A DNA stretch of 64,000 nt from Coleofasciculus chthonoplastes F2-STO-03 (lineage in GTDB: Bacteria; Cyanobacteriota; Cyanobacteriia; Cyanobacteriales; Coleofasciculaceae): the NCBI GenBank assembly GCA_040222015.1, contig JAVJWO010000085.1, positions 1 to 64,000 of the forward strand. The letters run 5' to 3'. How positions within the stretch are numbered: position 1 is the stretch's first letter; every line of letters begins with the position of its first letter. Below, piece after piece: positions 25,423 to 47,382 of this stretch. The position numbers and the translations under genes are program-made. Below the pieces are notes generated by a model. It saw nothing but the letters and a program-made list of their open reading frames with translations. It made no database searches and was not told the origin of the DNA.

Positions 25423-27144
25423 ATGCCATTAGATTATTTTGCACCAGGAGTCTACGTTGAAGAGGTAGACCGAGGCAGTCGCCCGATAGAGGGCATTAGT
25501 ATGAGTGTCGCTGGGTTTATTGGGTTTACCGAGGATATACGCGGTGACGCCGAATTATTTAAACCCATGCTGATTACCACTTGGGATCAGTACTTACAGT
25601 CCTTTGCCAAAGAAGGCTCCGATGGGTTTACGGACTTTGACGCCTATTTACCCTTTGCGGTTCAAGGGTGGTTTCTCAATGGTGGGGGTCGCTGTTGGGT
25701 GACCAGTATTGGTACAAAACTTCCCGGTTCTGAACCGCCGCCAATCGAGCAAACGGGGACTAAGATTCTCACAGCCGGAAATCGCCCCTCTTTACAATTC
25801 ACGCTTAAACCGGCTGAATCTGAATCAGAAGAAGGGGGAGCCTTAGCGCTATCCGGTGCAGATGAACCTCGGCTGCGGATGGTGATTCAAGAAAGCACAC
25901 CCAAACCCTTACCCGAAGACGCACCAGAGGATGCCGAACCTCCGTACAATACCGGTGAATTCTTTGACCTGATTGTGGCACGGGGCGACGAGGTATTGGA
26001 ACGGTATGACCACCTGACGATGAATCCCGAAGTGGAAACTCAGGTAGCTGACTATGTAGTTACCGCCGTAGAAAGTTCTGAATTTATCCAGGCGGTTGAC
26101 ATTTCCCAAAGCGGACAACCCCTGTCACGGCGACCTATGCAGGGAGCGTATGAGATTACACCGCCCCCCTATATTTCTGACCCGGAACACTTTGCCCGGG
26201 ATTTACAAGGACAACGGGATGACCGCACGGGGACACAGGGGATTTTTGAAATTGATGAAGTCGCCATGATTGCTTGTCCTGACTTGATGAAGGTGTATCA
26301 AGAGGGATTGATGAACTTGGAGCAAGTTCACGGTGTCATGGAAATGATGCTGAGTATGTGCGAGAATTCCTTCCCCGGTCCAGCCTACCGGATGGCGGTT
26401 CTTGATGCACCTCCGGTCAAGCCGACGAAAGGAGATACCCCGGTTTCGGCGGAACAACAGAAGCCGCAAGATGTCGCGGCTTGGTTAAAACTGTTTAACC
26501 GCCGTTCCATGTTTGGCGCTCTTTATTATCCTTGGATTAAAGTAGCGAATCCTCGCAATGGTGGGCGTCCCATGTATGTCCCCCCCTGTGGTCACATGAT
26601 GGGGATTTGGTGTCGCACCGATGAGACACGCGGCGTGTTCAAAGCACCCGCTAACGAAACACCGCGCGGTGTGACGGGTTTAGCCTATGACACCAATATG
26701 CGGGAACAGGAACTGTTAAACCCGATGGGAATTAACTGTATCCGTAACTTCGCCAATTACAACCGAGGTTACAAGGTTTGGGGTGCTCGCACCTTGGTAG
26801 AACCGGATAACGTGCAATGGCGTTATATCAGTGTCCGCCGCTTACTCAGCTACATTGAGAAATCCATTGAAATTGGTACACAGTGGGTGGTGTTCGAGCC
26901 AAATGACCAAATTCTCTGGGCGCGTGTACGCCGTACAGTCAACAATTTCCTAGAACGGCTGTGGCGTGAGGGAGCATTGTTTGGAACTTCCCCTTCAGAA
27001 TCGTTCTATGTCAAGTGTGATGGGGAAATCAATACCCATGAGACAATTATGCTCGGTCGTCTCTATGTAGAAGTCGGTGTTTGTCCAGTCCGTCCGGCTG
27101 AATTTGTGATCTTCCGGATTAGTCAGTGGGCACCGAATCAATAG
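25423..27144 (+). CDS. Contractile injection system tail sheath protein
   Basis: DYFAPGVYVEE, F.NGG.RCW, ALYYPWI.V, PP.GH..G...RTD..RGV.KAPAN, WGARTL, WRYISVRR, WVVFEPND, PAEFVIFRI.Q. Confidence 0.95.
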   Translation: MPLDYFAPGVYVEEVDRGSRPIEGISMSVAGFIGFTEDIRGDAELFKPMLITTWDQYLQSFAKEGSDGFTDFDAYLPFAVQGWFLNGGGRCWVTSIGTKLPGSEPPPIEQTGTKILTAGNRPSLQFTLKPAESESEEGGALALSGADEPRLRMVIQESTPKPLPEDAPEDAEPPYNTGEFFDLIVARGDEVLERYDHLTMNPEVETQVADYVVTAVESSEFIQAVDISQSGQPLSRRPMQGAYEITPPPYISDPEHFARDLQGQRDDRTGTQGIFEIDEVAMIACPDLMKVYQEGLMNLEQVHGVMEMMLSMCENSFPGPAYRMAVLDAPPVKPTKGDTPVSAEQQKPQDVAAWLKLFNRRSMFGALYYPWIKVANPRNGGRPMYVPPCGHMMGIWCRTDETRGVFKAPANETPRGVTGLAYDTNMREQELLNPMGINCIRNFANYNRGYKVWGARTLVEPDNVQWRYISVRRLLSYIEKSIEIGTQWVVFEPNDQILWARVRRTVNNFLERLWREGALFGTSPSESFYVKCDGEINTHETIMLGRLYVEVGVCPVRPAEFVIFRISQWAPNQ

Positions 27145-27593: not shown

Positions 27594-28082
27594 ATGGCTG
27601 CCGAACTAAAAGGTCTTGCCCCTAGTAGTTTTTCCTGTGATATTGATGGTTTGGGTGAAGTTTCATTTCAAAGTGTGAAAGTTCCTGAGTACAAGCCGAA
27701 ACTAGCGGGTGAATCCGCCGTGGTGGGTTCAATGAAAGGTGGGAAATCCGAGCGGCAGATTAACTCGGCGGGCTTTGAGGAAGTGGTCACTTTTGATTTA
27801 GTCTGCCTTTCTAGTCCAAGTCCAACCAGTTCTAGTGTAATCATGTGGAAATGGTTCAAAGCTTGCCTCCCTCCCTCCGATGGCGGTGAAGGAAAATGGG
27901 CTGATAACAAAAAAACAGGAAGTATCTTTGCCTACAGTCATGATGATGCAATTATCGCCCAATGGGACTTCCAAGAAGCGTGGCCCTCGAAAATGAGCCT
28001 TTCCGAATTGGATGTCAATGGCAAAGATTATCTCAAAGAAACCTGGACAATAGTGTGCGAAAATTGCACCCGCGTGATGTAG
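27594..28082 (+). CDS. Tail tube-like protein (T4 gp19 family), divergent
   Basis: F...IDG, W.WF, KKTGSI..Y......QW.F.EAWP.K...ELD, E...IVCE. Confidence 0.75.
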   Translation: MAAELKGLAPSSFSCDIDGLGEVSFQSVKVPEYKPKLAGESAVVGSMKGGKSERQINSAGFEEVVTFDLVCLSSPSPTSSSVIMWKWFKACLPPSDGGEGKWADNKKTGSIFAYSHDDAIIAQWDFQEAWPSKMSLSELDVNGKDYLKETWTIVCENCTRVM

Positions 28083-28142: not shown

Positions 28143-28631
28143 ATGGGAGATATTGAATATAACACAAACTCTGCTTTCTTTTTTGATTGTGATGGAATGG
28201 AGATAGTCGTCGAAAAATGTACGATTCCTGCGATTGAAATGAAAGTGGCAGCAGGAAGCGGAGCCATCGGCTGCGGCAGAGATGGGAAAACCCAAACCCA
28301 AGCTACCCCGGGTGCAGTCGAGTATGGTTCTGCTCTTAAACTCGAATATGTGGCAGGTAACGAGGGAGATCAACAGAAAATAACCGATTGGTATAAGAAA
28401 TGCCACGCCTCCTCGTTCTCCGGTGGTGCTACAGAGTCGAGGAAAAACCGAAAAACAGCATCACTGTTTATTTACGATATGAATGGTAATATTGGAGCGC
28501 AGTACGATTTCATCGATTGCTTCCCCAGCAATCTGACCCAAACCAGTCAATTCGATGTTAGTAAGCCGGGAGAACTGGCGAAAGATACGATGGAGATTCG
28601 GTTCACGAAAATGGTACGGGCAGACGTGTGA
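28143..28631 (+). CDS. Tail tube-like protein (T4 gp19 family), divergent
   Basis: TPG.VEY, WY, RKTASL.IYD.NG....Y.F..CFP, ..K.T.EI.F. Confidence 0.7.
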   Translation: MGDIEYNTNSAFFFDCDGMEIVVEKCTIPAIEMKVAAGSGAIGCGRDGKTQTQATPGAVEYGSALKLEYVAGNEGDQQKITDWYKKCHASSFSGGATESRKNRKTASLFIYDMNGNIGAQYDFIDCFPSNLTQTSQFDVSKPGELAKDTMEIRFTKMVRADV

Positions 28632-28753: not shown

Positions 28754-29248
28754 ATGGCAGAAGTTGAAATTCTGACGCGATCGCGCTTTTATTTAGAGTT
28801 AATCTTAGATGGAAGTAACGATGCTGTCGATGGTTTGTTTCAGGAATGTGCGGGCTTTAAAGCAACCCAGGATGTTGTTGAAGTCTGCGAGGTAACGCCG
28901 CAGAAGTGGGGTAAAAGCGGGAATTCTAGAGGTCGAATGGTTCGGACTAAGGTTCCGGGTAATATCACCTACACCAATCTCACCTTGAAACGAGGTTTAA
29001 ATATTTCCATGACCTTGTGGAATTGGCTGAATTCTGTACAGGAAGGAGCAAATTGGGAAGATCAACGGCGTAATGGTGCATTAGTTCTCTATGATACGGC
29101 ATCTAAGGAGCAGTTTCGATTTGAATTTAAAGGCGCGTGGCCCATTAGCTATAAAATTTCTGATTTGACTGTTACAGGAGATGAGTATCAAGTAGAAGAA
29201 GTCGAGGTGACAGTTGAACAATTAACACGGATTAAGCCAGGGACATGA
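28754..29248 (+). CDS. Tail tube/initiator protein (Afp1/Afp5-like)
   Basis: RFYLE...DG, F.EC.G, K.PG...Y.NLTLKRG, LW.W, RRNG..VLYD, F.F..AWP, E.E...E.L.R. Confidence 0.85.
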   Translation: MAEVEILTRSRFYLELILDGSNDAVDGLFQECAGFKATQDVVEVCEVTPQKWGKSGNSRGRMVRTKVPGNITYTNLTLKRGLNISMTLWNWLNSVQEGANWEDQRRNGALVLYDTASKEQFRFEFKGAWPISYKISDLTVTGDEYQVEEVEVTVEQLTRIKPGT

Positions 29249-29604
29249 TTCAAACCGAGTTTGAATTTGAGCTTCCCAAAGGATATCTGGATGGGGAAGG
29301 AAACTTACACCGCAAAGGGGTAATGCGGTTAGCGCGGGCAATTGATGAAATCGTTCCCATGCGTGATCCTCGCGTGAAATCTAATCCCGCGTATGCCACG
29401 GTGATTATTTTATCAAGAGTCATTTTACGTTTGGGGGCTTTAGATGAAGTCACTCCTACAATAATTGAAAATTTGTTTACCTGTGATCTCAATTATTTGC
29501 AACAATTTTATCGGCAAATTAACGAATTAGAATCTGAAAACCAAGTCGAACAGAGTTCTAGTTTTTCGGCACAATCTGGATCAATCACATCTGATTCTGA
29601 ATGA
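29245..29604 (+). CDS. CIS tail assembly chaperone-like protein 1
   Basis: TEFEFELPKGYLD.EG.LHRKG.MRLA.A.DEI.P.RDPRV..NPAY...IILSRVI..LG. Confidence 0.8.
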   Translation: MIQTEFEFELPKGYLDGEGNLHRKGVMRLARAIDEIVPMRDPRVKSNPAYATVIILSRVILRLGALDEVTPTIIENLFTCDLNYLQQFYRQINELESENQVEQSSSFSAQSGSITSDSE

Positions 29605-29768
29605 TATAAAATTCATTTTTTTGTCAACAATAAATCTCAAAAATAAGGTTTGATACAAGTGGTTAAGTAAAGGGCGACCCGATCCAATTAAATGGATAAA
29701 CTTGTTGATTGATGCAGCGGGTCGCCCCTACAGGAGAACGAAGGACAAAGGACAAATGACCAATAACT

Positions 29769-30086
29769 ATGGACTATACATATTTTGAATTTACTCTACC
29801 CAAAGGTTTCGTGGATACCAATTGTGGTATTCATCACCATGGGATAATGCGTCGAGTCACCGGGAAAGATGAGATTGTAGTTCACAAAGATAGCCATGTG
29901 CAGCAAGAACCTTACTACCGCATTTTTGTTATTTTGTCTAGAGTTATCACCCGTATTGGCAACCTTTCTCCGGTTACACCGAAACTATTAGAACAACTTT
30001 TTTTAGTAGACTTGATTTACTTACAAAACTTTTTCAATCATATCAATCAGCATCAGGGAGGAATGGCGCGATCGGGGGAATATTAG
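29769..30086 (+). CDS. CIS tail assembly chaperone-like protein 2 (putative G form)
   Basis: Paralog of 29245-29604; ends TCG GGG GAA TAT TAG. Confidence 0.8.
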   Translation: MDYTYFEFTLPKGFVDTNCGIHHHGIMRRVTGKDEIVVHKDSHVQQEPYYRIFVILSRVITRIGNLSPVTPKLLEQLFLVDLIYLQNFFNHINQHQGGMARSGEY

Positions 30087-30229
30087 GCTACCCCTTGGAT
30101 CGTTTATACCAAGAGGTAGCCTTAATTGCTTTTTACTTTCACTGGTCATTAGACGATATCCTAAACCTAGAACATGAAGAACGGCTGCGCTGGGTTATAG
30201 AAATCCGCCGATTCACGAATGACAAATGA
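30074..30229 (+). CDS. DUF6760-like ORF in the -1 frame (putative T extension)
   Basis: GGILGYPLDRLYQEVALIAFYFHWSLDDILNLEHEERLRWVIEI; no ATG/GTG/TTG in frame between stop 29939-29941 and the conserved GYP; not in the ORF track. Confidence 0.75.
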   Translation, partial: GGILGYPLDRLYQEVALIAFYFHWSLDDILNLEHEERLRWVIEIRRFTNDK

Positions 30230-30267
30230 CAAATGACGAATGACGAATGACAAATGACAAATGACAA

Positions 30268-30549
30268 ATGACGAAATTTGCCTTCCCCTTGTCAGAAACC
30301 GCTGTTCAGGTAAAAATAGGGTCACAGTTGATCGAGTGTATCCCTGAGTTAGACCAAGCTCAAGTGCTTGTAGATACGGAACCACCAGCCGATTATTTTG
30401 ATGATCTGCCTTCATTCAATCCCCTATTTGCTCAAGGTGTTAGCACTCGCCCCTGTCCCTGTGGATCAGGTCAATTGTTTCAAGCGTGTCATGGCAGCTT
30501 AACTATCAACTGTCAATCGTCAACCGTGGAAACCTCTGAGTCATCGTAA
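30268..30549 (+). CDS. Small SEC-C motif protein
   Basis: PCPCGSGQLFQACHG; stop overlaps the next start (TAATG). Confidence 0.55.
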   Translation: MTKFAFPLSETAVQVKIGSQLIECIPELDQAQVLVDTEPPADYFDDLPSFNPLFAQGVSTRPCPCGSGQLFQACHGSLTINCQSSTVETSESS

Positions 30550-31883
30550 TGAGTAATTCTCTAGCCATTGCTACCGTAACCGCCACTCTCCAACGAATTG
30601 TACAGACGTCGATTCAGGACGATATTAGTGGGGCAATGGTGACCACACTACGACCCAATGAAGTGGGAACAGCAACTCCCCAAGTGGGCGTGAATGTCTT
30701 TCTTTACCAGGTTCAGATTAACCATGCTTGGCGTCAACAGGCTGAAATACAAGCCCGCAGTCGGGGAAACCCAGGTGCCAAGCGATCGCAAACTGCCCTA
30801 GACTTACATTACATGATCAGTTTCTACGGGAATGATAACGACTTACAACCGCAACGGTTGATGGGTAGTGTGATGGGTGGTCTCAACGACTGGCGTACCC
30901 TGAAAAAAGAGAGAATTGAGCAAACCCTCCACGATTCTACCTATCACTATTTATTAGAGTCTGACCTACCGGATCAGATCCAAGAAATCTCCCTGTGGCC
31001 CCTCGATTTGTCCTTAGAAGATTTATCTAAAGCCTGGTCAGCTTTTTTTCAAACCACTTACTTATTATCGGTGGCTTATCGGGCTAGGGTAATTATGCTC
31101 GAAGGGCAAGATACAGGCAAGAGACCTCTGCCAGTACGGGCTCGTTCTTTAGAGGGAATTGTTCCCTTTACTAATCAGCCGAAAATTGATCGGATCATTT
31201 CTGAAGCTGGGCGATTGGAACCCATCTTAGCCGATAGTACGGTGTTAATTCAAGGGAACCATTTACAAAGTGATATCACCCAAGTTTGGATTGGGGAAAT
31301 GGAAGTCACCCCCAGTGAAATCACCGACACCCAAATTGTATTACCCCTTTCCTCTATACCCACTGAATCATTACAGGCGGGGATGCATAGTCTCCAGGTG
31401 GTGCATCGTCTGGCAAAAGTGATGCCACCCACATCAGGTAATGGTAATGGCGTCAGTGGGAATGGGGGTCAGATGCAAACGGTTAATCAGCCTCAAACTT
31501 TTGTTTCTAGTATTCAGTCGAATGTATCTCCTTTGGTGATTCGTCCCACAATTACAAAAACTACGGTGTCTAAAAAAGAGGTTGATGATGAAGATTTGCG
31601 GTCTGCGGAAATACGGGTACGATCCAATTTAACCGTAGGTAAAAAGCAGCGCGTTTTGTTAGCCCTGAATGAAATTGATACGAATCAACCGGCGGCTTAT
31701 TTGTTTGAAGCGTCTCCTCGCCAGACGGATGTGATTTGGGTGTCTTTCCCGGTTGAACGGATGAAAGGAGGACGCTATTTAGTTCGCTTGTTGGTTGATG
31801 GTGCAGAAAGTCCGCTGATTGTGGATACTGAACCCGATAGTCCCACGTTTAATCAGTATGTGGGTCCGAGAATCTCGATTTAA
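30549..31883 (+). CDS. DUF4255/Pvc16-like CIS cap (tail terminator) protein with Ig-like C-terminal domains
   Basis: MSN.LAIATVT.TL, VN.FLYQV..N..WR, LDLHYMI.F, LS..WS.F....Y.LSVAY; IPT/TIG-like segment; L.R..VDGAES. Confidence 0.8.
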   Translation: MSNSLAIATVTATLQRIVQTSIQDDISGAMVTTLRPNEVGTATPQVGVNVFLYQVQINHAWRQQAEIQARSRGNPGAKRSQTALDLHYMISFYGNDNDLQPQRLMGSVMGGLNDWRTLKKERIEQTLHDSTYHYLLESDLPDQIQEISLWPLDLSLEDLSKAWSAFFQTTYLLSVAYRARVIMLEGQDTGKRPLPVRARSLEGIVPFTNQPKIDRIISEAGRLEPILADSTVLIQGNHLQSDITQVWIGEMEVTPSEITDTQIVLPLSSIPTESLQAGMHSLQVVHRLAKVMPPTSGNGNGVSGNGGQMQTVNQPQTFVSSIQSNVSPLVIRPTITKTTVSKKEVDDEDLRSAEIRVRSNLTVGKKQRVLLALNEIDTNQPAAYLFEASPRQTDVIWVSFPVERMKGGRYLVRLLVDGAESPLIVDTEPDSPTFNQYVGPRISI

Positions 31884-40903: not shown

Positions 40904-41677
40904 TTAAGGTTCAGTGGTTGCCGCCTGGAAAAAGGGTTGCATCTCAAACCCTAACCCCTGTGCCAAAACCGAGTTAGGAAATTGCTGAATTGTTTGATTG
41001 TATTGTTGCACCGCCTGATTATAACGCATCCGTTCTACTGCAAGGCGATTTTCGGTTCCGGCTATTTCATACTGAAGGTTCGTAAATAATTGACCCGATT
41101 GTAACTGAGAATTATTGGCGGCATAGTCTTGAAAATGATTAATCGCGTCATTCACTTCTTCGACAGCCGCCACTTTTTGTTCTGGGGTATCCGCTTGTAA
41201 ATAAGCCTGACGAGATTGCTGCAATAGAGACACAATTTCTTTTTCGTGTTCGGTGTAAGCTTGAGTGACTCGAACTAAATTAGGAATCAAATCAGCCCGC
41301 CGTTGAAGTTGATTTTCTACTTGCGCCCATTTAGCCTGAACCACAGAAGCATGGCGGGAAAATGAGTTATATGTCCAGATACTCCAAATTGCACTAACAG
41401 CCAGAATACTTGCACCAATTGTCGCTAGAATTTGGCGTTGTTTTTGACGCCGATTTTGGCGCGATCGCACCTCTTGAATTGCTTGTTGAATAAACTCTGC
41501 TGGAATCTGGGCTTCTGTACCCGCTTGTATGAGTTCTGAGGCAGAGTAAGCTTGACTATAATTCGCATAATTGCGAGAGGCTAATTCCAGCACCTCTGAC
41601 GTCATTGACTCAGGAATTATCATATCTAAATTATTCATTTTTTTCTCACTTTTCATAAAATTCAAGGAAATTACCAA
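40904..41677 (-). CDS. lemA: LemA family protein
   Basis: WAQVENQLQRRADLIPNLV, IAGTENR.AVER.RYN.AV..YN..I..FP. Confidence 0.92.
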   Translation of the reverse strand: MVISLNFMKSEKKMNNLDMIIPESMTSEVLELASRNYANYSQAYSASELIQAGTEAQIPAEFIQQAIQEVRSRQNRRQKQRQILATIGASILAVSAIWSIWTYNSFSRHASVVQAKWAQVENQLQRRADLIPNLVRVTQAYTEHEKEIVSLLQQSRQAYLQADTPEQKVAAVEEVNDAINHFQDYAANNSQLQSGQLFTNLQYEIAGTENRLAVERMRYNQAVQQYNQTIQQFPNSVLAQGLGFEMQPFFQAATTEP

Positions 41678-43356
41678 CTCCCTCCAGCACCACCACCACC
41701 ACTAGAACCACCGTCGAAGCTACCACTGGAACTAGAACTACTGCTACCGCTAGAACCTGTGCTACCACTGTAACTACCATAACTACCACTGTAACTACTA
41801 CTGGAAGAACGACTACGACTTGAACTGCCTCCAGAATAAGAACGAGAACGTTGGATAATTACTGCCTGTTCTTGGGAATAATCACAACATTTGCACTCAT
41901 CAATAATGAAACGTTGACTTAAGCTATATGGTATCATTGCTTCTCTACGAGTTACGGTTAATTCTTGACAGTGAGGACATTTTTGATAAGATTGAGAATC
42001 TAAAACATAAGCCCGGATATGAATTAACCGTAAAAGCATTTTTTGGCTACAGTGACGACAGTGCCAACCTTCAAATCTAACACTACCCAACTCTTGAGCA
42101 ACTTTCTCAGGTTTGGTGAGCTGAGATGCAACTAAACTTGACTTGACTTTTCTCAGGGACAAATGACAAGAGTTACACCGCAAAGACGGATCAGAATAGT
42201 ATCGTTCCATGAATCGGTGAGAAAGAGGAATAGCAATAATTGCTCCTGAAATTAATGCTGAACTGATAATAACCCCCACTTGTCCAAATAAGTATCCCAT
42301 TAAATAACCTATAATACTCTGGACAAAAAACACGAAGAAAATAGGAATAAAAGGAATTAAAATCAGAACCCCTAGAATAACCGACCAGAAACCTGTTAAT
42401 ATTGCGAATATAATGAAGATAATGATTGTTGATCGATTAGTAGTCTTGTAGCGCGAGTGAAGCTTATTAATTGCCAGTTTTAATAGCTTACATCCAATAG
42501 CTAAAGAGGTGACAATTATTCCAATGAAGACTCCAATATTTGCTAGAGGGGTAATGGCTACAGAAAATAGTACCAGAGCAAAAGTAGCAGAAAACGTGAC
42601 CAGATAAGCGAAAATATAAGCTTTACGTTCAGGTGTATATCCTTGTTGTACTCGCGATCGCCCTGTCGGTGTAAGATAAATTGGATTACTGATTTTATTG
42701 AACTGACGATATCCTATCCAGGACAATAGTATACCGACCACACCCATTAACGCAATCCTGCCACGATGAGTAGCACTTAGGGATATCTCAGCCAGGGATA
42801 TATCAGTAGGATTGGCTGAAAAAGAATGAGTGTTTTTACCTTGTAAAATCTTCACTAGCGCTTTCGTTCCCGCTAATACACCACCATCAAAGTCACCTTG
42901 TTTGAATCGGGGTGTAATCTTATTTTCAATAATGTGTCCAACCTGAGCATCCGGTAAAATTGGCTCAATCCCATAACCCGTTTCAATTTCAACGCGACGA
43001 TCACCAACTGAAACCAAAAATAGTACACCATTATCTTCATTGGCTTTGCCAATTCCCCAATGATTAAATAACTCTGTTGTAAACGCTTTTGGCGAAGCCA
43101 ATGGTGCTGTTTCTGGCACAGTAACTACGGCGATTTCTGTCCCATTTTGGGCTTCTAACTCAGAAATCATTTGATTAAGTTTAGTTTCTGTAGAATCACT
43201 GAGGATATTTGCCATATCCGTTACCCAAGTGCCATTGACCTGTTGCGGATTGGGGACATCTTGTATATTTAACGCATAACTCAGATAAGGAAATAGGCAA
43301 AGTGCTAGACAAAATAGACTTGCCACAACTAGGCGTTGAAGTTTGAAAACTTTCAT
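41671..43356 (-). CDS. TPM-domain protein with a multi-TM insert, one Cys-rich module and a Gly/Ser tail
   Basis: V.D.ANILS, EIAVVTV, LFN.WGIG....DNGVLFL.S..DRRVEIETGYG; CxxC pairs; SFDGGSSGGGGAGGSW. Confidence 0.88.
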   Translation of the reverse strand: MKVFKLQRLVVASLFCLALCLFPYLSYALNIQDVPNPQQVNGTWVTDMANILSDSTETKLNQMISELEAQNGTEIAVVTVPETAPLASPKAFTTELFNHWGIGKANEDNGVLFLVSVGDRRVEIETGYGIEPILPDAQVGHIIENKITPRFKQGDFDGGVLAGTKALVKILQGKNTHSFSANPTDISLAEISLSATHRGRIALMGVVGILLSWIGYRQFNKISNPIYLTPTGRSRVQQGYTPERKAYIFAYLVTFSATFALVLFSVAITPLANIGVFIGIIVTSLAIGCKLLKLAINKLHSRYKTTNRSTIIIFIIFAILTGFWSVILGVLILIPFIPIFFVFFVQSIIGYLMGYLFGQVGVIISSALISGAIIAIPLSHRFMERYYSDPSLRCNSCHLSLRKVKSSLVASQLTKPEKVAQELGSVRFEGWHCRHCSQKMLLRLIHIRAYVLDSQSYQKCPHCQELTVTRREAMIPYSLSQRFIIDECKCCDYSQEQAVIIQRSRSYSGGSSSRSRSSSSSYSGSYGSYSGSTGSSGSSSSSSSGSFDGGSSGGGGAGGSW

Positions 43357-43443
43357 GGTTTAATTCTCCAATTAAACACAAGTTATAATGCACGAGGACA
43401 CAGAGCCTACCCAGAAGCATTCTCTGGGAAAGACAAATAACGA

Positions 43444-45615
43444 TTACCAATCTCCGCCTGCACCGCCGCCGCCACTATCACCCCCGCCAAAATCACTACT
43501 ACTGCTACTATCGCTACTGTAACTATCGCCACTACTACTGCTATCGTCACTACTGCTACACCAAATAGCACTGCTAGAACTACTATCATTCCAACTACTA
43601 TCACTGCTACTGCTGTAGCTACTACTGGAAGAAGGACTACTGGAATAACTGCTGCTATAAGCTGGACGTAAACGTGGGATTGTTTCTGCCTTCTCGTAGT
43701 GATAGTCACAACATTGACAATCACTAATAATCAGATATTTACCCGTACTATTTGTTGTTGCTTGCTTAACTGTATTTTTAGTACGAATTACTGTTAATTC
43801 TTGACAGTGATGACATTTATAAAACTTACTGGAAATCACTACATAAGTGCGAATGTGAACACCCAGACAATTCGGACATTTCCAACCCTTCAATTGGATA
43901 CTGCCTATCGTTTGTGCCACTTTTTGGGGACGAGTGAGGTGGGATGGCAAATCGTCAGTACCAATGAGTTGCATGGGATAGTTACAATCGGCACAATGCT
44001 TGTGTGGGTGGTGTAAATCGGGATTCAAGTCGAGGGACACTCGCGATCGCCCATTGGGTTTGAGGAAGATAGCATTGGCTGGTGGCGTTAAGCAGGGAAT
44101 CGCTTCTTTCATTTGTGCTTGGTAATCACAACAGTGACACTCTTTATGCACCAATTTCTCACCTTTTTGGTTCCAAGTGGGTTCTTTCAGTATGGTTTCA
44201 AGCTTGCGAGTGACGGTTAATTCTTGACAAGTGAGACATTTTTCAAAGTCCACTGAGTTGGAGACATAAGCAAAAATATGCACACCTTCTCCAGTTAAAT
44301 GGGGGCGACACCGAGGACATTGCCAACCATCAAATCGAATACTACCGATTTTTTGTGCCACTTTTTCCGGTTGAGTGAGTTTGGATTCTAGTGCGATCGC
44401 ATCGAGGTGTTCCAATTGCTTCTTACAATCAGCACAGTGCAGGCGACGATTGCTGTAAGGATACCCTTGAGTACGAGTTTTTCCTTCCGGTTTAACTAAA
44501 ACTCGACGCTGTCTGCTAGAACTTCTACTCGCTGATATCAGTAAAATAATGGGCAATCCGGGAAACAAGAGTAGAACAAATGCCATGGCTAACCCATTGA
44601 ATCCAGAGGATGTATCCGAATTAGATTGTTGAACAGACAGTGAAGGATTGCGGCGAATTGGGGCAGTATTTGTTTGAGGTGTTGGAGTAGGAGATGCTAC
44701 TGTTGGGTTTTCAGACGTGGATGTTTGAGCGGCACTAGAGGGTGCATTTTGAGCGTTTTGCTGGGCAATCTCTAAATTCCGCTGATACTCAGTAATCTTT
44801 TCTTGGGCTTTTTCTGCATTAGCACTATCATCCGGCACAGATTTCAGGAGATCAATAGCTCGCTGCCAGAGACTCGCGACGAGATTCCAGTCTTCTTGAT
44901 ATTGTGCCGACTGAGCTAAGGTAGCTGCACTCATGCCACTATCCAGTGCTTGTTGAAATGTATTAACTTGAGATTTTGGCAATTCGGTTGACTCTGGAGT
45001 AATGGGTTGTTTTTTAGGGTTAGCTGGTATCGGATTAACTTCACCGCCTAACTGCACAACCAATGCTTGGGTTCCGGCTAATGTCCCTGCGTCAAAGTTG
45101 TTTTGCTTAAAGAACGGAGTAATTTGAGTTTCGATAATCTTGCCAACCTGAGCATCGGGTAAAATTGATTCAATACCGTATCCGGTTTCAATCTCGACGC
45201 GGCGATCGCCTGTGGAAATCAAAAACAGTACACCGTTATCCTCATCAGCTTTACCAATCCCCCAGTGATTAAATAATTCAGTGGTAAAGGCTTTGGGTGA
45301 TGCGGCTGGAGATGTCTCAAGTACAGTTACCACAGCAATTTCTGTGCCATTTTCAATTTCCAACTGGGAAATCATCTGATTGAGTTGGCTTTCGGTATCC
45401 TCACTGAGGATATTTGCCATATCTGTTACCCAAGTGCCATTCACCTGCTGGGGATTGGGAACTTCTTCAACGGTTAAGGCGTGGACAGAAAGGGGTGAGA
45501 AAACAGTTATACAGAATGGAATTATCCAAATAACCTGTTTGATTTGACCTGCAAAGCATTTCATAAATTCCATCTCCGATAAAAACTTGATGTTGATTGG
45601 GGTATGTGAGAACAC
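43444..45615 (-). CDS. TPM-domain protein with a helical repeat, TM, two Cys-rich modules and a Ser/Gly tail
   Basis: TPM motifs as above; duplicated CADC...PxKVAQ.IGSI...GW.C..C...HI..YV...C..CQELTV...C.CCDY; FGGGDSGGGGAGGDW. Confidence 0.88.
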   Translation of the reverse strand: MFSHTPINIKFLSEMEFMKCFAGQIKQVIWIIPFCITVFSPLSVHALTVEEVPNPQQVNGTWVTDMANILSEDTESQLNQMISQLEIENGTEIAVVTVLETSPAASPKAFTTELFNHWGIGKADEDNGVLFLISTGDRRVEIETGYGIESILPDAQVGKIIETQITPFFKQNNFDAGTLAGTQALVVQLGGEVNPIPANPKKQPITPESTELPKSQVNTFQQALDSGMSAATLAQSAQYQEDWNLVASLWQRAIDLLKSVPDDSANAEKAQEKITEYQRNLEIAQQNAQNAPSSAAQTSTSENPTVASPTPTPQTNTAPIRRNPSLSVQQSNSDTSSGFNGLAMAFVLLLFPGLPIILLISASRSSSRQRRVLVKPEGKTRTQGYPYSNRRLHCADCKKQLEHLDAIALESKLTQPEKVAQKIGSIRFDGWQCPRCRPHLTGEGVHIFAYVSNSVDFEKCLTCQELTVTRKLETILKEPTWNQKGEKLVHKECHCCDYQAQMKEAIPCLTPPANAIFLKPNGRSRVSLDLNPDLHHPHKHCADCNYPMQLIGTDDLPSHLTRPQKVAQTIGSIQLKGWKCPNCLGVHIRTYVVISSKFYKCHHCQELTVIRTKNTVKQATTNSTGKYLIISDCQCCDYHYEKAETIPRLRPAYSSSYSSSPSSSSSYSSSSDSSWNDSSSSSAIWCSSSDDSSSSGDSYSSDSSSSSDFGGGDSGGGGAGGDW

Positions 45616-45876
45616 TGTAAATTCTTGAACCTGCGTCGTCTGTCTCTTACTCGCTATTGAGTCTTGGCTTTTATGCGAGAGGTTGATTGTTGTAATATCT
45701 CTTTACAACTTGATAGTGTCGATTAACTAACTTAAGGGTTGGTAGAAAATGATGCGATCGCTGATGGCGAAGACAGCGCCACTACAAACTGATGATGTTA
45801 GATGTAAGAGTTTGTAGTCAGCGCTTAACTTGCTTATGGCATGCTTTGGGCAACTACGAAGCGGTATTCATTCCGT

Positions 45877-46431
45877 TTAGAAACCACCGCCAGCACCGCC
45901 ACCGCCACTGTCACCGCCGCCAAAGCCGCCACCACTAGAACCACCGCCACCACTGTAGCCACTGTAGCCACTGTAGCCACTACTCGAAGAACTACCACTA
46001 CTCGAAGAACGACCACTACTCGAAGAACGACCACTACTAGAACGACCACTACTAGAACTGTTATCGCTATTTAGGGCTAGAATCAGCACTCCAACAGGTA
46101 CGCCCAATAGGATGAGTAGTGCCAGCAAAGCCTCGTTAGACGACTTATAAATACTGTCTTGTTGCTCAGGAGATGTAGTATTACTCGCGACGACAGGACT
46201 CGTTTCAGTAACCAAGGCTTTTGTTTCGTTGAATGTGCTTTCTTCAACGGTTAGGGCTTGGGCAGCCAGAGGGGAGAAAATGGTTAGACAAACTGGAACT
46301 GTCCAAATCATTTGTTTGAGTTGACGTGCCAAAGGTTTCATTGTTTTTATCTCCGATAAACTGTTGATATTGATGAGGTTATGGGGGAAAGCTGTAATTT
46401 TTTGAAGCTGAGTTGTCTGTTTCTTATTCAC
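45877..46431 (-). CDS. TPM-family paralog lacking the TPM domain
   Basis: Same signal peptide (SPL.AQALTVEE), TM and FGGGDSGGGGAGGGF tail; TVEE joins almost directly to TKALV. Confidence 0.7.
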   Translation of the reverse strand: MNKKQTTQLQKITAFPHNLININSLSEIKTMKPLARQLKQMIWTVPVCLTIFSPLAAQALTVEESTFNETKALVTETSPVVASNTTSPEQQDSIYKSSNEALLALLILLGVPVGVLILALNSDNSSSSGRSSSGRSSSSGRSSSSGSSSSSGYSGYSGYSGGGGSSGGGFGGGDSGGGGAGGGF

Positions 46432-46551
46432 GGTTAACTCCTAGATTGTCTGCAAAAGGTCAATTTGAGGAATAATGTTTCACACATTTAGCCAGCATCT
46501 GTTATCGACTTGAGGCAGTCAAAACCTGTAATGATCCAAGCGAACATGAGA

Positions 46552-47382
46552 TTAGAAACCACCGCCAGCACCACCACCACCACTGGAACCGCCGCCACTA
46601 CTGCAACTACCGCCACTACTGGAACCAACACTGACACCGCCACCGGAAGAACGACGCTTGGAAGAAGAGTTCCTATTGCGATTCGCGGCGAACAGAACTA
46701 TGATTCCCACAGGTACTCCTATAAATAGAAGTAATGATTGCAACGTACCTCCAGAAAAGGTTTCTTCACTAGATAGTTGAGAGGAAGATACAGCCATCGT
46801 GCTGTTGGTCGTTTCTCTATGTGCTGATAACGTTTGGGTAGCATCGCTTGTAGTGGCTTCATCCCCTAAGTGAACAACCAATGCTTTGGTTCCGGCTAAT
46901 GTCCCGGCGTCAAAGTTACCTTGCTTAAAAGGTGGAGTAATTTTAGTTTCGATAATCTGACCAACCTGGGCATCGGGTAAAATAGGTTCGATACCATATC
47001 CGGTTTCAATCTCGACGCGACGATCGCTTATGGAAATCAAAAACAGTACACCGTTGTCTTCATCAGCTTTGCCAATCCCCCAGTGATTGAACAACTCGGT
47101 GGTAAAAGATTTGGGTGATGGGGCGGGAGAGGTTTCAGGTACAGTCACCACTGCAATTTCTGTACCATTTTCAATTTCCAACTCGGAAATCATTTGATTG
47201 AGTTGGCGTTCCGTATCCTGACTGAGAATATCTGCCATATCTGTTACCCAAGTGCCATTTAGCTGTTGCGGATTAGGAACCTCTTCAACGGTTAAGGCGT
47301 GGGCGGAAAGCGGTGAGAGGACAGTGAGACAGAAGGGAACTGCCCAAATTGCCTGTTTGATTTTAGTAGTTATGCTTTTCAT
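46552..47382 (-). CDS. TPM-domain protein (YgcG-like architecture)
   Basis: Signal peptide, TPM domain, TM and GGGSSGGGGAGGGF tail. Confidence 0.9.
   Translation of the reverse strand: MKSITTKIKQAIWAVPFCLTVLSPLSAHALTVEEVPNPQQLNGTWVTDMADILSQDTERQLNQMISELEIENGTEIAVVTVPETSPAPSPKSFTTELFNHWGIGKADEDNGVLFLISISDRRVEIETGYGIEPILPDAQVGQIIETKITPPFKQGNFDAGTLAGTKALVVHLGDEATTSDATQTLSAHRETTNSTMAVSSSQLSSEETFSGGTLQSLLLFIGVPVGIIVLFAANRNRNSSSKRRSSGGGVSVGSSSGGSCSSGGGSSGGGGAGGGF

Follow-up and report, generated by a model that had tools for sequence, protein, structure and literature searches.

A chaperone gene of a cell-encoded contractile injection system (CIS) of Coleofasciculus chthonoplastes F2-STO-03 is in all likelihood expressed through a programmed -1 frameshift of the phage lambda G/GT type, which would yield a short chaperone of 105 residues, G, and a minor extended form of 153 residues, GT. 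This reading is built on the anatomy of the junction, its phase, its conservation, the absence of start codons and the homology with phage chaperones. On a wider scale, it seems probable that DUF6760 is the hidden T domain of a phage G/GT switch kept, with a hairpin stimulator of its own, by a large bacterial and archaeal branch of the CIS. In this broader proposal, an unrecognised tape-measure client is required and some lineages would have swapped the switch for other heptamers, for a G gene accompanied by a fused GT gene, or for T as a gene of its own.

The injection system locus and its chaperone junction

The window is the whole stretch of DNA that was analysed, 64,000 nucleotides of contig JAVJWO010000085.1. 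Its forward strand carries a CIS tail sheath gene (25423-27144; PF17482, PF04984), three T4 gp19-like tube genes (27594-28082, 28143-28631 and 28754-29248; PF06841), two tail assembly chaperone paralogs named TAC1 (29245-29604; phrog_508, E 4e-6) and TAC2 (29769-30086; phrog_508, E 1.5e-4), DUF6760 (30074-30229) and a Pvc16/terminator gene with a TIG domain (30549-31883; PF14065, PF01833). Baseplate_J, CIS_tube and five eCIS_core/DUF4157 genes are located on other contigs of the genome. By its sheath, gp19 tubes, Pvc16 terminator and baseplate genes, the locus is an extracellular/cytoplasmic contractile injection system. Judged by host range alone (Streptomyces, Chloroflexota, archaea), it would belong to eCIS lineage II (Chen 2019). 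The genome encodes two chaperone genes and one DUF6760, and the chaperone pair sits 3' of the tube genes as it does in plasmid annotations. The closest named relatives among the matches listed are Coleofasciculus assemblies, with 90-94% in T.

The chaperone ORF TAC2 (105 aa) ends with TCG GGG GAA TAT TAG, its stop codon being TAG 30084-30086. The heptamer G GGG GAA (30074-30080) is in phase with the chaperone frame. The overlapping -1 frame is open from 29942 to 30229, between TAG 29939-29941 and TGA 30227-30229, and reads GGILGYPLDRLYQEVALIAFYFHWSLDDILNLEHEERLRWVIEIRRFTNDK. It matches DUF6760 (PF20546) above the cut-off with an E-value of 1e-9. No ATG, GTG or TTG occurs in this frame between the upstream TAG and the conserved YP motif; the first one, TTG 30095, lies past YP. 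A shift at the heptamer would produce a fusion of 153 aa (103 + 1 + 49). TAC1, a G-only paralog, has no G-run at its end. The chaperone end, the overlap, the missing start codon and the paralog without slippery site had all been reported in a preliminary description of this DNA, and each was found again in the sequence.

The heptamer does not follow the canonical X XXY YYZ pattern since the A-site pair requires U-G at position 2. The genome encodes tRNA-Gly with GCC and UCC anticodons and none with CCC (ARAGORN), hence GGG would be read by wobble. By chance, G|GGG is found in 387 of 6531 xGE tripeptides encoded by the long ORFs of the genome, against 89 of 98 homologous junctions.

Several other features were observed around the junction. 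A dispersed repeat matching many contigs and without Rfam match lies between both chaperone genes (29660-29740). The end of the T frame is overlapped by 8.4 copies of the 7-bp repeat AATGACA (30218-30277), present in many copies genome-wide, which supplies the stop codon of this frame. A 93-aa ORF with a SEC-C motif (30268-30549) is encoded between DUF6760 and Pvc16. The Rfam search over 29500-30600 gave no match at E<=1, and the promoter and terminator scans stayed at chance level. Further away, the minus strand carries a run of paralogous ORFs with Gly/Ser-rich tails (40904-47382), which we take to be membrane proteins; their neighbour is presumably a LemA-like ORF.

Relationship with phage tail assembly chaperones

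The upstream ORF can be classified as a predicted tail assembly chaperone by its phrog_508 match and by its HK97 chaperone/YqbN-like modelled fold, the latter with modest scores. The structural model of a natural fusion, P0121 (pLDDT 88), has YqbN (Z 5.7) and the HK97 chaperone (Z 5.0) as top PDB matches, which cover residues 1-101 and are modest, with Z under 8. Foldseek against the PDB gave no match at E<=0.001. Among viral models, P0121 matched T4-like baseplate-assembly proteins and gp090 of phage BCD7. T alone is predicted to form three helices, and its model had no match at E<=0.001 among viral structures. In profile comparisons, 12 of 19 T members matched PF06528, all below the cut-off (best E 7e-4), and T aligned with the true PF06528 extension of phage Mae-JY29 with a probability of 96% and an E-value of 2e-9 (hhalign). 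In Mae-JY29 itself (PP438421), this P2 gpE'-type extension is unannotated and lies 3' of a T TTT TTT run (L184:2900-3130).

The arrangement resembles that of lambda gpG/gpGT by a chaperone gene placed after the tube gene, a -1 overlap near the stop codon and short and extended products, which are predicted here. It differs from lambda by being cell-encoded in an injection-system locus, by its site (G GGG GAR/GGN), by a conserved 3' hairpin, by an extra G-only paralog and by the lack of an adjacent tape measure gene. Phage P2 produces gpE and gpE+E' (PF10109, PF06528) from a TTTTTTG site, according to the available text of PMC3091744. T is probably homologous to the E' extension, both systems are contractile, and one locus (L213) uses T TTT TTG; the usual site and the hairpin are different, and the G of the window does not reach PF10109. 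In PMC10885494 (available text), GGGGGAA is reported to serve as five-two motif in about a thousand frameshift annotations from SEA-PHAGES. These actinobacteriophage chaperones share the heptamer and the gene class with the present locus, but they are phage annotations. The attribution of GGGGGAA to phage L5, made in the preliminary description, found no confirmation in literature searches. Frameshifts in the g-t genes of haloarchaeal viruses include G_GGA_AAC in HCTV-1 (PMC5009743, available text); the haloarchaeal DUF6760 loci have in-phase G GGA AAT/AAC, but belong to cellular injection systems. The part of PMC3711429 consulted gives 6-7% frameshifting for a phage-derived, HK97-like chaperone cluster.

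A homologous pair is found in phage BCD7 (NC_019515), whose gene order is sheath, two tubes, gp090 (G), a DUF6760-like -1 ORF and the tape measure gene. gp090 ends with CTG GGG GAG TAA, and the -1 ORF (L183:2900-3160; E 1e-4, below the cut-off) is unannotated. With this T4 gp26-like family (PF12322, phrog_150), the loci share a homologous G (probability 93%), the CxxC ribbon and the junction, although BCD7 G, with 257 aa, has double the length; BCD7 likewise lacks an annotation of the frameshift. The CxxC ribbon of most homologues is missing from a cyanobacterial subgroup formed by the window's chaperone (29769-30086) and those of L012, L015, L020 and L025; cyanobacterial in-frame fusions likewise lack it.

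In phage lambda, the partner of G is the tape measure protein and that of T the tube subunit, the ratio of both products matters and neither is present in the particle (PMC5009743, available text). By analogy, G in the CIS would cover a tape-measure-like protein while T brings in tube subunits, and both would be absent from the final particle. TAC1 would supply more of the G-only chaperone. A real frameshift could also serve a chaperone with another client, e.g. a lumen cargo such as the DUF4157 effectors. No tape measure gene was found 3' of T within the window, where the repeat, the SEC-C ORF and Pvc16 come next; lineage II systems are said to be devoid of afp14 homologues in the portion of PMC6899500 available, and the genome carries its five eCIS_core/DUF4157 genes elsewhere. 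In contrast, the homologous pair of BCD7 precedes a tape measure gene, and a Streptomyces DUF4157 effector has remote tape-measure homology according to the available text of PMC11126660, so that both client roles may be one. Another client therefore appears unlikely. A long ORF, counted whatever its identity, is found 3' of T in 55 of 98 loci. The predicted complex of T with a tube protein (L151, 30-row alignments) scored 0.00, which is evidence neither way. Under the broader proposal on DUF6760, systems reported without tape measure genes but equipped with a G/GT switch must have an unrecognised tape-measure client.

Conservation of the phase and of the slippery site

Whole genomes from the phylum of the window and from those of nine other genomes were searched with the PF20546 profile. 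This search yielded 105 DUF6760 loci, spread over several phyla of bacteria and archaea, one locus from an unpublished genome being dropped; the Myxococcota-centred search contributed its best 30 of 53 places. The locus of the window itself is part of the set, as are eight centre genomes initially met through a biased search. The same chaperone precedes DUF6760 in 98 of the 105 loci, always with DUF6760 in the -1 phase (98/98). The remaining seven comprise five in-frame proteins of 290-300 aa with DUF6760 at their end and two loci that are not assessable.

The G GGG G motif is present at 89 of these 98 junctions, as G GGG GAR (71) or G GGG GGN (18). Nine different codons occur before it, with E or G as second residue. 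The nine other junctions carry G GGA AAT (3), G GGA AAC, T TTT TTT, T TTT TTC, T TTT TTG, C CCG GGG or G GGG AAA, the four G GGA AAY junctions being those of haloarchaeal loci. The diversity of preceding codons, the E/G alternation and the alternative heptamers indicate that slipperiness is kept rather than the peptide. In the same chaperone genes, GGG follows a G in 41 of 524 Gly codons, and an in-phase GGGGG occurs within the last 30 nt of only 1 of 76 upstream G-only paralogs. The sampled genomes are related and not independent, hence these counts overstate significance.

Comparable results were obtained in other collections. In a plasmid sample of 19 of 39 records (Actinomycetota, Pseudomonadota, Bacillota, one cyanobacterium, haloarchaea), all 19 loci are in -1 and 17 have a G-run; where annotated, T is recorded as a separate gene, mostly named DUF6760. 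All ten IMG/VR loci are in -1 with a G-run. A further 80 loci, all in -1, were not used as a test because they had been ranked by a query beginning with GG. On the Pseudanabaena plasmid NZ_AP017564 (L165), a hypothetical gene of 990 aa precedes the chaperone/DUF6760 pair; DUF4157 genes lie in the vicinity, but neither a sheath nor a tube is annotated within 12 kb. The conservation of heptamer and phase, which the preliminary description had set as a check, is borne out; its cyanobacterial setting proved too narrow, as the junction is present there but extends over several bacterial and archaeal phyla.

RNA elements flanking the slippery site

Two elements missed in the preliminary description flank the heptamer: a conserved hairpin on its 3' side and a weaker Shine-Dalgarno (SD)-like element on its 5' side. 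The predicted stem-loop of the window (30085-30122; core 30087-30092 with 30115-30120) has a folding energy of -22.9 kcal/mol (z -2.75), equalled by 4 of 200 shuffles. When T was recoded synonymously for comparison, the native fold reached p<=5/100 in 79 of 99 distinct loci; a control segment further 3' did so in 10/99. Plasmid loci show a weaker hairpin, with 9/19 at this level. Over 93 distinct rows, 79% of cells can pair, against 74.5% in shuffles (0/500) and 34-52% with slid partners, and double-change cells number 66 versus 37.8. Two of five covariation measures, covarying pairs and pair types, were not above shuffles (383 and 425 of 500). In the Myxococcota group, GTA encodes the pairing Val in 29 of 30 loci, whereas it makes up 6 of the 242 Val codons of the corresponding G genes. 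A 3' hairpin is rare at these phage frameshift sites, according to the available text of PMC3091744.

The SD-like element AGGGAGGA of the window (30055-30062) lies 11 nt 5' of the heptamer, with a duplex energy of -10.4 kcal/mol. Such a site is found at spacing 5-15 in 70 of 89 loci versus 52.5 expected, a modest excess. This element is weaker than the 3' hairpin and is a possible stimulator.

Natural fusions and separate genes

Eighty metagenome loci were ranked by their likeness to fusions. They comprise 74 loci in -1 (62 with a G-run, 9 with C CCT TTC as slippery site and 3 without recognisable site), 3 in-frame fusions and 3 separate genes with an ATG. The in-frame fusions (L214-L216) have neither run nor hairpin (-5.4 to -8.7 versus a median of -20.1 kcal/mol), and each retains an upstream G-only paralog. 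The separate genes (L245, L260, L267) have their own ATG just past the G stop and likewise neither run nor hairpin. T can thus be encoded apart, and the earlier view of DUF6760 as a T moiety rather than an independent gene is too strong if taken as never independent. The proposal that the CIS makes a short and an extended chaperone is supported by the phase, the site, the missing starts and the natural fusions, and is probably correct; the refuting observations that the preliminary description had named, checked against the homologues, did not overturn it.

Protein collections contain fused proteins as well, and two of these belong to clusters with 3 and 5 members. In the tree, cyanobacterial fusions share a chaperone clade with the gene of the window. 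Fusions were grouped in 0/200 bootstrap trees, which is suggestive of several origins; repeated origin is not claimed because the AU test (p 0.057) does not reject a single clade. Six apparent fusions (P0151, P0152, P0159, P0162, P0165 and P0167) were set aside as probable sequencing indels. The five in-frame proteins of 290-300 aa (L200:742-1641, L210:745-1650, L212, L296, L297) are T4 gp26-like, with phrog_150 in the two that were scanned. Four of them carry TTC TTT TTT GG just 5' of DUF6760, possibly a shift site yielding a shorter form.

Start codons and alternative routes of expression

DUF6760 could be a separate small protein produced by translational coupling, with the G-run as ribosome-binding site and a restart at ATA, GTG or TTG; ribosomes ending at the G stop would open the hairpin, then restart nearby. 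Start-hiding hairpins are typical of translational coupling, RefSeq annotates DUF6760 as a separate gene, and a canonical start lies within 6 codons of YP in 24 of 98 loci, and nearby in 11 of the 19 plasmid loci as well (mostly Actinomycetota, often with a GTGA overlap). L245, L260 and L267 are true separate genes, and L125 and L249 have GTG/TTG at the G stop. Homologues mostly do not have a start of their own: no ATG, GTG or TTG occurs between run and YP in 68 of the 89 G-run loci, and the whole open -1 frame is free of canonical starts in 46 of 98 loci. This frame opens 0-2 codons before the run in 13 of the 89 loci, in two of these directly at it. In 21 of the 89 loci not even the near-cognate CTG, ATA, ATC or ATT is found between run and YP, as in L020 (TGA GGG GGA GTA TTT GGC TAC). 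Candidate start codons are separated from the run by only 1-4 nt. The G stop is located at -8, -5, +7, +16 or +28 relative to the Tyr codon, and this shift from -8 to +28 has no effect. Moreover, lineages that lose the G-run adopt other slippery heptamers in the same phase, and the true separate genes have neither run nor hairpin. Coupling is for these reasons an improbable account of the locus.

It is still harder to credit that the fusion arises from slippage of RNA polymerase on the G-run, giving an extra G in some transcripts. Runs of 5-8 G do occur among the loci and rare RNA variants would be invisible in contigs, but a five-G run is short. The alternative sites G GGA AAY and C CCT TTC are heptamers of two codons whose register is set by the reading frame, and the position of the hairpin, a few bases 3' of the site, suits the ribosome. 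Finally, the idea of one gene split through an assembly error or a recent mutation, which the existence of in-frame fused homologues might evoke, can be dismissed given independent contigs without indel and a phase shared by 98/98 homologues. A contig from another study (X2) covers 29855-30117 with 0 differences and 0 gaps, and contigs of related strains (X11 and X3) cover the junction with 53 and 32 substitutions and no gap. Contig X1, possibly the window's own source, was left out of this comparison, and X3 consists of RNA contigs of a related strain, which have no bearing on translation.

Proposed mechanism and implications

According to the frameshift model, most ribosomes would stop at TAG 30084-30086 and release G. 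The hairpin would pause ribosomes, perhaps aided by the SD-like element, and tRNA-Gly would re-pair from GGG to the GGG one base back. A minority would thus shift to -1 at G GGG GAA and synthesise GT, with a junction peptide S-G-(E or G)-I-L-G-Y-P. One gene would thereby give both a short and a long chaperone, some ribosomes slipping back one base at a G-rich site before a hairpin.

The mechanism is textbook; the host system, the hairpin, the archaeal reach and the reading of DUF6760 appear new. The preliminary description knew of no such case in cyanobacterial CIS, and the literature search likewise found no description of a frameshifting chaperone in CIS or eCIS and no papers on DUF6760; Vladimirov 2022 (T4-like chaperones) could bear on novelty. 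The word 'frameshift' is absent from the main text of PMC11126660, PMC8894136, PMC4122934, PMC6899500 and PMC12998442, whose supplements or figures may label these genes, and from the main text and 6 supplements of PMC10020575.

Overall, the locus is strongly conserved and, from its sequence, a programmed -1 frameshift of the G/GT kind is very likely. This offers a role for DUF6760 and for an unnamed conserved injection-system gene, and predicts a protein missing from annotations. In the available text of Chen 2019, the role of domain-less lineage II genes and the way these systems cope without afp14 were left open (PMC6899500), and the G/GT pair makes these points testable. With its wide distribution, the junction is also a candidate case of programmed frameshifting in genes of cellular organisms, methanogens and haloarchaea among them, for which few cases are listed in the part of PMC5009743 consulted. 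In practice, the overlap must stay intact when such a cluster is expressed or recoded in a laboratory host.
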